Source: an uncultured Clostridia bacterium (GTDB taxonomy: Bacteria; Bacillota; Clostridia; TANB77; CAG-508). Taken from it: 32,000 bases of DNA. How positions within the stretch are numbered: position 1 is the stretch's first letter; every line of letters starts with the position of its first letter. The translations under genes and the position numbers were made by a program. This document shows, one piece after another, positions 8,419-8,799 of this stretch. The stretch is taken from NCBI GenBank assembly GCA_947624905.1, contig CANQMI010000003.1:1136-33135 (forward strand), written 5' to 3'. The notes under the pieces were generated by a model. The model saw nothing but the letters and a program-made list of their open reading frames with translations, ran no database searches and was not told the DNA's origin.

Positions 8419-8441
8419 CTAGAAAAAATATACTTGTTCGC

Positions 8442-8469
8442 TTGACTTTTTACGAACAAATGTTATACA
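8442..8469 (+). promoter_or_regulatory. promoter for the small hydrophobic ORF, with its -35 inside a 7-bp palindrome
   Basis: TTGACT (8442-8447), a 16-nt spacer, then TATACA (8464-8469) with an upstream TG (TGtTATACA). The palindrome TTGTTCG (8434-8440) / CGAACAA (8453-8459) brackets the -35. Confidence 0.5.
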
Positions 8470-8555
8470 ATATAAAACATAGGAAATGAGAATAAGCAGA
8501 TGTGGTTTCCACTTTACATATCAGAGAACAACTCTGGGAAAGTGAGGTGGTGTTT

Positions 8556-8660
8556 ATGATAGAATTTCTAATGTTTCTTATTATAGGACTAATGAGTTCA
8601 ACAGCCATAAACGTAGCCTTATTAGCAATTATATTTATACAATGGACAAATAAGGAATAA
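8556..8660 (+). CDS. 34-aa hydrophobic peptide, candidate type I toxin (not in the ORF track because it is under 60 aa)
   Basis: GAGGTGG RBS 5 nt upstream of the ATG. Peptide MIEFLMFLIIGLMSSTAINVALLAIIFIQWTNKE has one predicted TM helix and a short polar tail. The 5' UTR is structured (CAGAG-aacaa-CTCTG and CACTTT/AAAGTG next to the SD). Confidence 0.5.
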   Translation: MIEFLMFLIIGLMSSTAINVALLAIIFIQWTNKE

Positions 8661-8662
8661 AT

Positions 8663-8705
8663 AAAAAACACATCTGTAATTTGACCGTTGTAGATGTGTT
8701 TTTTC
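8663..8705. terminator. bidirectional rho-independent terminator shared by the convergent transcripts
   Basis: ACACATCT (8668-8675) pairs with AGATGTGT (8692-8699), extendable by wobble pairs. An A run lies on the left and a T run on the right, so it works on both strands. Confidence 0.7.
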
Positions 8706-8745
8706 TATAGCGTGGAAAACCATGTTTGTGGTTTCTCCATTTCCT
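8663..8745 (-). ncRNA. candidate antisense small RNA (about 80 nt), putative antitoxin
   Basis: It would be driven by the consensus promoter at 8752-8780 (minus strand). The predicted RNA AGGAAAUGGAGAAACCACAAACAUGGUUUUCCACGCUAUAG... contains a hairpin (GGAGAAACCA/UGGUUUUCC) and ends at the shared terminator. No ORF with an RBS is present. Confidence 0.45.
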
Positions 8746-8751
8746 ATAACT

Positions 8752-8780
8752 ATTATACACAGATTATTTGATTTTGTCAA
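8752..8780 (-). promoter_or_regulatory. perfect consensus sigma-A promoter on the minus strand
   Basis: The minus strand reads TTGACA (8780-8775), a 17-nt spacer, then TATAAT (8757-8752). Confidence 0.65.
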
Positions 8781-8799
8781 ATGATATTTAGATATTATT

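Follow-up and report, generated by a model that had tools for sequence, protein, structure and literature searches.

What does a cassette of about 350 bases, made up of a gene for a small peptide and a convergent gene for a small RNA (sRNA), do beside the sporulation gene spo0A of an uncultured Clostridia bacterium? The cassette lies in an AT-rich clostridial stretch of 32,000 nucleotides (nt) (GenBank assembly GCA_947624905.1, contig CANQMI010000003.1, positions 1,136 to 33,135 of the forward strand), which we call the window. An initial annotation of this DNA proposed that the cassette is a type I toxin-antitoxin system resembling the par locus of Enterococcus. Our comparison of the cassette with its relatives favours that proposal: judging from sequence, we put at roughly 0.77 the probability that it is a functional type I toxin-antitoxin module with a par-like architecture, belonging to a family that has not been described previously. 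This reading is carried by the anatomy of the cassette, by its conservation as a whole module, by the coding constraint on the peptide gene and by the covariation of all four of its pairings, each of which is an observation. The features of the cassette are listed here by their positions in the window; ORF stands for open reading frame, mRNA for messenger RNA and UTR for untranslated region.

8442-8471, plus strand: toxin promoter, TTGACT-18-TACAAT, matching the consensus at 10 of 12 positions.
8479-8709, plus strand: predicted toxin mRNA of about 230 nt, its start placed 8 nt past the -10 box and its end at the U-tract past the terminator.
8479-8491, plus strand: 5' leader AUAGGAAAUGAGA, common to the antisense RNA, recognised from an inverted repeat and from parallel change across clades.
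8492-8498, plus strand: 5' arm of helix P1 (AUAAGCA), which pairs with UGUUUAU at 8551-8557 and so takes in the A and U of the start codon.
8499-8509, plus strand: bulge of about 10 nt between P1 and P2, holding UGUGGUUUC (8501-8509), the target of the antisense 5' arm.
8509-8517 with 8542-8550, plus strand: helix P2, CCACUUUAC paired with GUGAGGUGG, which encloses P3 and sequesters the Shine-Dalgarno sequence.
8522-8526 with 8532-8536, plus strand: hairpin P3 inside P2, CAGAG paired with CUCUG.
8556-8660, plus strand: ORF of 34 codons for the putative toxin, a peptide with a single transmembrane helix, MIEFLMFLIIGLMSSTAINVALLAIIFIQWTNKE, supported by translation, relatives and AlphaFold2.
8658-8709, both strands: shared two-way intrinsic terminator with its core stem at 8663-8705, recognised from an inverted repeat and from folds.
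8655-8747, minus strand: predicted sRNA antitoxin, about 90 nt long and lacking a conserved ORF, its ends estimated; fold z = -4.6.
8716-8735, minus strand: 5' hairpin of the sRNA (H1), whose 5' arm GAAACCACA (8735-8727) can base-pair with the mRNA bulge.
8780-8752, minus strand: antisense promoter, TTGACA-17-TATAAT, matching the consensus at 12 of 12 positions.

Both promoters, the ORF for a peptide with one transmembrane segment, the bidirectional terminator and the near-identical starts of the two RNAs are where the initial annotation had placed them. It was also right to describe a structured 5' UTR and a strong ribosome-binding site: the fold of the whole mRNA has z = -2.9 and GUGAGGUGG, the Shine-Dalgarno sequence at 8542-8550, precedes the ORF. 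By a rough estimate, a perfect promoter of the antisense type is expected by chance about 0.01 times in 2.3 kilobases (kb) of the same composition. The arms of the terminator (8658-8675 and 8692-8709) form a hairpin of 18 base pairs (bp) in the mRNA and one of 13 bp in the antisense RNA, and U-runs follow on both strands. Both RNAs begin with AUAGGAAAUG owing to an inverted repeat, in which ATAGGAAATG at 8479-8488 is matched at 8738-8747. Two estimates are amended by our analysis. The antisense RNA lacks a conserved ORF, as had been claimed, and its length is nearer 90 nt than 80 nt; the 3' ends of the two RNAs do overlap at the terminator, over as much as 55 nt if each RNA traverses its U-tract, where about 40 nt had been proposed.

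The leader of about 12 nt (8479-8491 and 8747-8735) changes in parallel in both RNAs between clades, taking forms such as AUAGGAAAUGAG, AUAGAAAAUGAG, AUAGAAAGUAAG, AUAGGAAAUAAG and GUAGAAAGUAAG. The target in the mRNA also resembles the 3' arm of the sRNA hairpin, so the first 35 nt or so of both RNAs look like an inverted duplication. The sole plus-strand terminator-like site that a simple scan listed near the cassette (8709-8726) is the image of the sRNA 5' hairpin and is no terminator.

How far is this arrangement conserved? Our first query for homologues was an ORF of 52 residues with a GTG start, and it returned 5 proteins, 4 of them with spurious N-terminal extensions. The contigs of those 5 proteins, together with peptide-profile scans of GTDB species genomes (23 loci) and of metagenomes (80 loci), yielded about 115 related loci, cited here by L numbers, with 77 distinct cassettes. 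All come from uncultured Clostridia, mostly from the gut and including Clostridium sp. CAG:245, and the family spans 20 or more uncultured species of the gut. When 10 and later 32 cassettes were aligned, the similarity ran from the -35 box of the toxin promoter to the -35 box of the antisense promoter, and the flanks are unrelated. The antisense promoter shares 11 or more of the 12 bases of TTGACA-N16-18-TATAAT, 88-101 nt past the stop codon, in 67 of 68 distinct cassettes, whereas the toxin promoters of the relatives match at 8-10 of 12; a strong antisense promoter facing a weaker toxin promoter fits an antitoxin that is made in excess. The conserved minus-strand promoter and terminator, with the transcript predicted from them, provide the antisense gene capable of pairing that is a trait of type I systems. 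Across these loci the promoters, the ORF, the shared terminator and a second patch of complementarity are conserved or co-vary as one module, in agreement with the par-like reading first proposed. Between species the cassette has 88-93% nucleotide identity, compared with 73-83% for spo0A, a difference that would fit either very dense constraint or recent horizontal spread.

These data bear directly on the idea that the cassette is a set of features brought together by chance in AT-rich intergenic DNA, or else a dead remnant there. Such DNA readily gives short hydrophobic ORFs, and promoter-like sites are no commoner here than in shuffled sequence (9 found, 11.5 expected). The same boundaries nevertheless recur at about 115 loci in at least 20 species, the frame of the ORF is kept, and 41 of the 42 scored pairs in the RNA structures show compensatory change, so we find this explanation hardly credible.

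Is the peptide itself under selection? In the alignments the ORF behaves as a coding sequence. Its relatives comprise about 50 distinct variants of 33-37 residues with the consensus xxF(L/I)xFLIIG(L/F)MIS(I/L/T)T(I/V)N(V/L/I)ALLxxI(F/Y)IxW(T/V)N(K/S)(E/Q); the Shine-Dalgarno sequence and the ATG are invariant across them, and insertions and deletions come in multiples of three. The pooled ratio of nonsynonymous to synonymous polymorphism (pN/pS) is 0.43 and the frame and length of the ORF are kept, which answers the concern that the surrounding RNA might be conserved and the ORF not. With 34 residues in the window and 33-37 in the relatives, the product is a small hydrophobic peptide of fewer than 60 residues, another trait of type I systems. 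AlphaFold2 predicts one helix over residues 2-33, with a confidence score (predicted local distance difference test, pLDDT) of 96.6. Most members have W at position 30, F, L, I or V stands four positions ahead of G11, and the polar residues S15, T17 and N19 within the helix are conserved.

The 52-residue GTG-start ORF, and the 58-residue ORFs that stand in databases, were ruled out as the true product: close relatives differ by 1-2 nt in the length of the UTR, which makes the upstream in-frame extension non-coding, and the UTR shows covariation of the RNA type. Gene callers mostly miss the peptide gene or add a false N-terminal extension, and the 34-residue product has no record as a called gene. 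That the peptide is unlike known toxins, as had been suspected, agrees with the database searches. Six diverse members matched nothing in Pfam or NCBIfam at E values up to 10, PHROGs has no family for the peptides, and a phmmer search of 1.84 billion protein representatives retrieved 12 proteins only, all of this same family; the peptide motif is not mentioned in the literature that we searched. The lack of a family match in Pfam, NCBIfam and PHROGs indicates that the peptide is not an Fst homologue, and in the same databases there is no homology to the TxpA/BsrG, BsrH/BsrE or YonT families.

The RNA structures are conserved through compensatory change. Folding each sequence separately gives the same UTR design, with P1, P2 and P3, in every lineage, and the capping hairpin P3 is built from at least five unrelated stem sequences. 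In the window mRNA the folding model leaves the ribosome-binding site unpaired with a probability of 0.10 and the AUG with one of 0.07; over 32 clades the Shine-Dalgarno sequence has a mean paired probability of 0.96, as against 0.60 with shuffled upstream sequence. We seeded covariance models on the window and one close relative and aligned all copies with Infernal. Compensatory changes were seen at all pairs of P2 (9/9), P3 (5/5), the sRNA hairpin H1 (8/8) and the terminator (13/13, with 94.6% of cells paired), and 6 of the 7 pairs of P1 are changed on both sides (88% of cells paired). For the UTR helices together, 91.9% of cells are paired, compared with 69.6% in shuffles and 39-55% in controls with slid positions, and 20 of 21 pairs are changed on both sides; for the sRNA hairpin and terminator the corresponding values are 91.9%, 66.3% and 28-58%, with 21 of 21 pairs changed on both sides. 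When only rows at verified cassette positions are counted, the paired fractions are 94.4% (UTR) and 92.5% (sRNA hairpin and terminator). The sRNA covariance model, R2, finds matches in at least 60 loci. Rfam gave no gathering-level match in the window (the best sub-threshold hits had E values of 0.4 or more in a search to E 10), and we took a match to rli28 at E = 1.8 to be fortuitous. Minimum-energy folds of the UTR leave the first 13 nt unpaired, and the centroid of the full-length mRNA pairs AUAGGA with the 3' tail; the complement CUAU was not seen in the single sRNA of a divergent clade that was read by eye, which is one sequence and not a systematic survey.

The second contact between the two RNAs arises from a direct repeat, TGTGGTTTC at 8501-8509 and 8727-8735, which makes the 5' UTR of the mRNA complementary to the 5' part of the sRNA and accounts for the patch of 9 nt noticed in the initial annotation. 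The best duplex at this patch has a predicted energy of -19.2 kcal/mol, compared with -12.2 +/- 3.0 kcal/mol for shuffles, 5 of 300 of which are as good; the duplex of the overlapping 3' ends is predicted at -81.5 kcal/mol. In an alignment-free test over 32 clades, cognate pairs of mRNA and sRNA score -9.1 and non-cognate pairs -7.4 kcal/mol, a difference equalled in none of 100000 permutations (0/100000), and the sRNA hairpin in the same test scores -9.85 with cognate and -6.67 kcal/mol with non-cognate partners. Examples of the compensation are UGUGGUUUC/GAAACCACA, UGUGGUUGC/GCAAUUACA, UGUGU-GUUGC/GCAAACACA and UGUGGCU/AGUCACA. The patch ends at 8509, with the Shine-Dalgarno sequence at 8542-8550 and the AUG at 8556, and leaves the translation start uncovered. 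A U-turn (YUNR) motif in the terminator loop was considered and left unscored, such motifs being common by chance in AU-rich loops.

Not every copy is whole. The start codon has been lost in the L029 copy and the stop codon in L028, the toxin 5' region has been replaced in L012, L021 and L070/L094, and the sRNA model matches DNA that has no recognisable toxin ORF at L007 4160-4255 (54 bits) and L018 7308-7396 (38 bits); the latter two could be orphaned antitoxin genes. That the toxin is lost independently and the sRNA retained is what a real toxin-antitoxin pair would predict. The same toxin-less copies, and the structured 5' domain that the sRNA possesses outside the overlap, would also suit a different role for the minus-strand RNA, namely that of a trans-acting regulator (possibly of spo0A or of sporulation genes) or of an element's leftover, with the overlap being incidental. 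In 67 of 68 cassettes, however, the spacing between the toxin stop codon and the sRNA promoter is fixed, and the 5' arm of the sRNA changes in concert with the bulge in the mRNA of the same cassette, which would be unexpected if the target lay elsewhere. On the evidence of the cassettes themselves we regard such a role as very unlikely.

A second class of toxin, with 38-40 residues (for example MVETSYLLALIYILFYALVGITIIALTSIIAVVILLCKSK), is carried on the same UTR leader and sRNA chassis in three places:

L016 4926-5200: copy of the second toxin class, inverted.
L018 4376-4600: copy of the second toxin class, which retains the motif TIINVALL.
L029 6447-6717: copy of the second toxin class, the one without a start codon.

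How did the cassette come to lie beside spo0A? The surroundings in the window are these:

7549-8368: spo0A, with its stop codon at 8366-8368.
8310-8370, plus strand: left direct repeat (attL-like), the last 61 nt of spo0A.
8786-8846, plus strand: right direct repeat (attR-like), a displaced relic of the spo0A 3' end.
8932-9219: gatC; the cassette lies between it and spo0A.

The cassette is thus part of a unit of 476 bp that is bounded by a duplication, 52-61 nt long, of the 3' end of spo0A. The two repeats are 92% identical over 61 nt (52 nt at 96% by blastn, E 2e-20), the distal (last) 41 nt being identical and the upstream, proximal part diverged, and in tblastn searches the repeat regions match Spo0A_C. 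A hairpin at 8851-8878, directly after the relic, is probably the original spo0A terminator. Repeats in this pattern are what site-specific integration at a gene's 3' end leaves behind. The unit in the window contains no integrase gene and no intact integrase was seen among the relatives; truncated tyrosine-integrase genes (PF00589, SAM-like), lying downstream of spo0A, stop about 150 nt before the toxin ATG in L006-L009, L013, L015, L019, L036 and L037, and L016 has an integrase fragment about 1.2 kb upstream of that codon. Fragments of the spo0A 3' end are found between or after cassettes in L006, L009, L010, L018 and L038, which is consistent with repeated integration. Both the window cassette and most of the copies that lie beside decayed integrases are intact, some copies being decayed themselves, and intact cassettes beside decayed integrases fit an addiction module that has outlived its carrier element.

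Elsewhere the cassette is found downstream of mutL, topA, a dacB-like gene or a glycosyltransferase gene, upstream of plsX, between a gene for a TraG/VirB4-like ATPase and a sortase gene, and beside AbiTii, PIN, HNH and KAP NTPase genes. We rejected a function specific to spo0A because the cassette family occurs in so many other neighbourhoods. The same evidence bears on the suggestion that the peptide is no toxin at all and that it is a harmless small membrane protein, for example one that modulates a transporter, a kinase or sporulation, whose level is tuned by the antisense RNA. The short and weakly charged tail of the peptide, the position of the window copy next to spo0A and the conserved S15, T17 and N19, which could make protein-protein contacts inside the helix, all speak for this suggestion. 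Yet the neighbourhoods are many and unrelated, conjugation clusters and defence-type genes among them, with no fixed partner gene apparent, and the integrase remnants and the duplicated target site explain the link to spo0A. A double lock on translation together with a consensus antisense promoter would, moreover, be heavy control for a benign peptide, and independent lesions that disable the toxin and spare the sRNA fit selection against an unguarded toxin. On balance a harmless protein seems to us unlikely.

The toxin-antitoxin reading leaves room for two views of how the cassette moves. It plausibly acted as the addiction module of an integrated element; it might instead be a self-standing selfish unit, a non-autonomous integrative mini-element and not cargo. 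Tyrosine recombinases acting in trans would then mobilise it into housekeeping genes, spo0A among them, at their 3' ends, and the addiction module would be its sole content. Units of about 0.5 kb that hold only the cassette, between direct repeats of 22-61 nt, exist in the window and in L030, and the ends of the cassette resemble an inverted duplication (promoter, identical 12-nt leader and target-like segment) that the two RNAs maintain in parallel from clade to clade. This proposal appears to us quite unlikely.

Other observations concern the edges of the unit. Direct repeats also flank it in L030 (34 nt) and L029-L032 (22 nt). AT-rich arrays of (TGTATTAAAA)n or (TGTTATAAAA)n at L029 5490-5511, 6254-6275 and 6783-6803 and at L030 530-563 and 1090-1123 flank successive cassettes of one clade as perfect direct repeats of 22-34 nt, making units of about 0.5 kb; these short arrays may be recombination sites. 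At L040 1-2430 a unit of about 1170 bp, consisting of the cassette and a gene for 140 residues, is present as a tandem duplicate with 100% identity. L004 (1-150) encodes an identical GatC protein and has the right edge of the cassette, TTGTCAAATGAT, with unrelated sequence in place of the spo0A relic before the shared terminator, so that the junction differs between strains. Several metagenome contigs (L001, L002, L003, L014/L035 and L116) end inside the cassette. One of these, L001, joins the spo0A of another species (76% and 91% amino-acid identity in the two domains) to the gatC of the window species by way of the cassette; it was considered as a larger island in the same species and dropped as evidence, being probably a chimeric assembly joined through the cassette, and the chimera was probably caused by a repeat shared between genomes.

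The spo0A gene of the window is itself split by a frameshift of 1 nt in the inter-domain linker, near 7930-7945, into ORFs for a receiver domain of 145 residues (7549-7986) and a DNA-binding domain of 115 residues (8021-8368). The same split is present in three other metagenome assemblies (L116-L118), which makes a random assembly error unlikely, and the lineage that carries it may not sporulate normally. At 12894-13641 of the window three overlapping hydrophobic ORFs in different frames (72, 98 and 78 residues) look like one broken membrane-protein gene; together with the split in spo0A this suggests that several genes of the genome are frameshifted.

What weighs against the toxin-antitoxin reading? 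The C-terminal tail of the peptide is 4-6 residues long and bears one or two charges (TNKE, TNKQ or VNSQIK), while longer charged tails are found in many type I toxins. A pN/pS of 0.43 amounts to moderate constraint only. With 35-45 nt separating it from the ribosome-binding site downstream, the 5' patch has no obvious means of blocking translation; in the sRNA, the bases that would pair with it belong to the 5' arm of the sRNA's own hairpin, with an unpaired probability of 0.35; and the patch is weak in the two most divergent copies (L025.1, z = -0.7; L030.1, z = 0.1). The shared terminator is absent from the list produced by a simple terminator scan. The covariation counts rest on structure-fitted alignments, which inflate pairing, and this inflation is addressed by the slid controls and by the alignment-free comparisons of cognate with non-cognate partners. 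Alignment by sequence only (MAFFT, with RNAalifold) of diverse sets recovered P1 and part of P2, or nothing, because the hairpins were misaligned. The cassette had no blastn match among INPHARED phages or PLSDB plasmids, and the peptide profile found nothing in IMG/VR viral contigs, so these searches gave no evidence that the cassette came directly from a phage or plasmid. Finally, transcription, the order of pairing, the involvement of a ribonuclease (RNase), toxicity and a stabilising role are all parts of the scheme that we infer.

How does the cassette compare with systems that are already known? The features of par (fst/RNA II) of the Enterococcus faecalis plasmid pAD1, and of par-like loci of Firmicutes, have been reviewed (Weaver 2020, PMC7472228). 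Like par, the cassette has convergent promoters, one shared two-way terminator with complementary 3' stem-loops, an oppositely transcribed DNA direct repeat that provides a second region of complementarity near the 5' ends, and an intramolecular helix that hides the Shine-Dalgarno sequence; like the par toxin of about 33 residues, its peptide has one transmembrane helix with a tryptophan at the helix end (in most members here), and like par it is found both on mobile elements and in the core chromosome. It differs in having one repeat where par has DRa and DRb, and in placing its 5' patch in a bulge upstream of the ribosome-binding site whereas that of par covers the translation start. No conserved helix over the extreme 5' end, as in par, was seen in minimum-energy folds of the UTR, and the one sRNA read by eye showed no matching complement. 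The sRNA of about 90 nt has a 5' hairpin of its own, unlike RNA II of about 40 nt, and the two RNAs of the cassette, unlike those of par, share an identical, co-varying 5' leader. In contrast to Fst, the peptide has no Pfam or NCBIfam match, no P/D/S/T-xxx-G motif and a tail of only 4-6 residues.

In the SprA1/SprA1AS pair of Staphylococcus aureus, which Sayed et al. are said to have described in 2012, the antisense RNA reportedly overlaps the 3' end of the toxin mRNA and uses a separate 5' domain to pair with the mRNA 5' region. The cassette resembles that pair in its 3' overlap, in the non-overlapping 5' antisense domain and in an antitoxin in excess, but the 5' domain in the SprA1 pair reportedly covers the ribosome-binding site and start codon, and the cassette peptide, unlike PepA1, is not of the Fst family. 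The regulation of SprA1/SprA1AS is summarised in PMC7472228. As far as sequence can tell, then, the peptide family of the cassette is outside the Fst family, and its architecture resembles par.

The txpA/RatA and bsrG/SR4 modules of Bacillus subtilis have overlaps of 75-120 nt that extend into the coding region and no single shared terminator, and the SR4 antitoxin acts in a second way, on the structure near the ribosome-binding site. With these modules the cassette has in common convergent genes, a 3' overlap, a small hydrophobic toxin and a location in prophage-like or integrated elements; its overlap is shorter, its terminator is single and shared, and the toxins are unrelated in sequence. 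Context for both modules is given in PMC6563280. In Clostridioides difficile the type I modules (CD2517.1-RCd8, CD0956.2-RCd10 and others) have toxins of 34-59 residues with a lysine-rich C-terminal region and lie in integrated mobile elements that they are proposed to stabilise (PMC6563280). The cassette is like them in its clostridial hosts, its convergent overlapping genes, the size of its putative toxin, its location in integrated elements and a proposed role in stabilising these; its peptides, which lack the lysine-rich C-terminal region, are set apart from the C. difficile toxins by description.

We propose the following scheme for the toxin-antitoxin module. The moderately strong promoter would direct synthesis of an mRNA of about 230 nt for a membrane peptide of 34 residues with a single helix, the consensus promoter on the opposite strand would direct synthesis of a non-coding RNA of about 90 nt, and one two-way terminator would stop both. 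The 5' UTR of the mRNA would bury the ribosome-binding site in P2 and the start codon in P1, leaving the bulge between them exposed. The 3' ends of the RNAs show full complementarity over about 50 nt, and the 5' arm of the sRNA hairpin is also able to pair with the bulge; pairing may begin at the terminator loops and then spread to the 5' patch, either locking the mRNA in a closed, untranslatable fold or marking the duplex for an RNase specific for double-stranded RNA. No peptide would be made while the sRNA was being replenished; if the sRNA fell, the peptide would be made, would enter the membrane and would arrest growth. The cassette in the window would be the last intact piece of a small element that a tyrosine recombinase had integrated into the 3' end of spo0A.

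Almost nothing is known of clostridial toxin-antitoxin systems of type I outside C. difficile (PMC6563280). Such systems are hard to find because their toxins are tiny and unrelated in sequence and their antitoxins are RNAs. The principle by which the cassette would work is itself established; what this locus may add is a new family that is widely distributed among uncultured Clostridia of the gut and abounds in natural compensatory variation. That variation suffices for the RNA structures and the contact between the two RNAs to be read from covariation, and the cassette would be a ready-made model for a par-like double contact in which the 5' contact lies off the ribosome-binding site.

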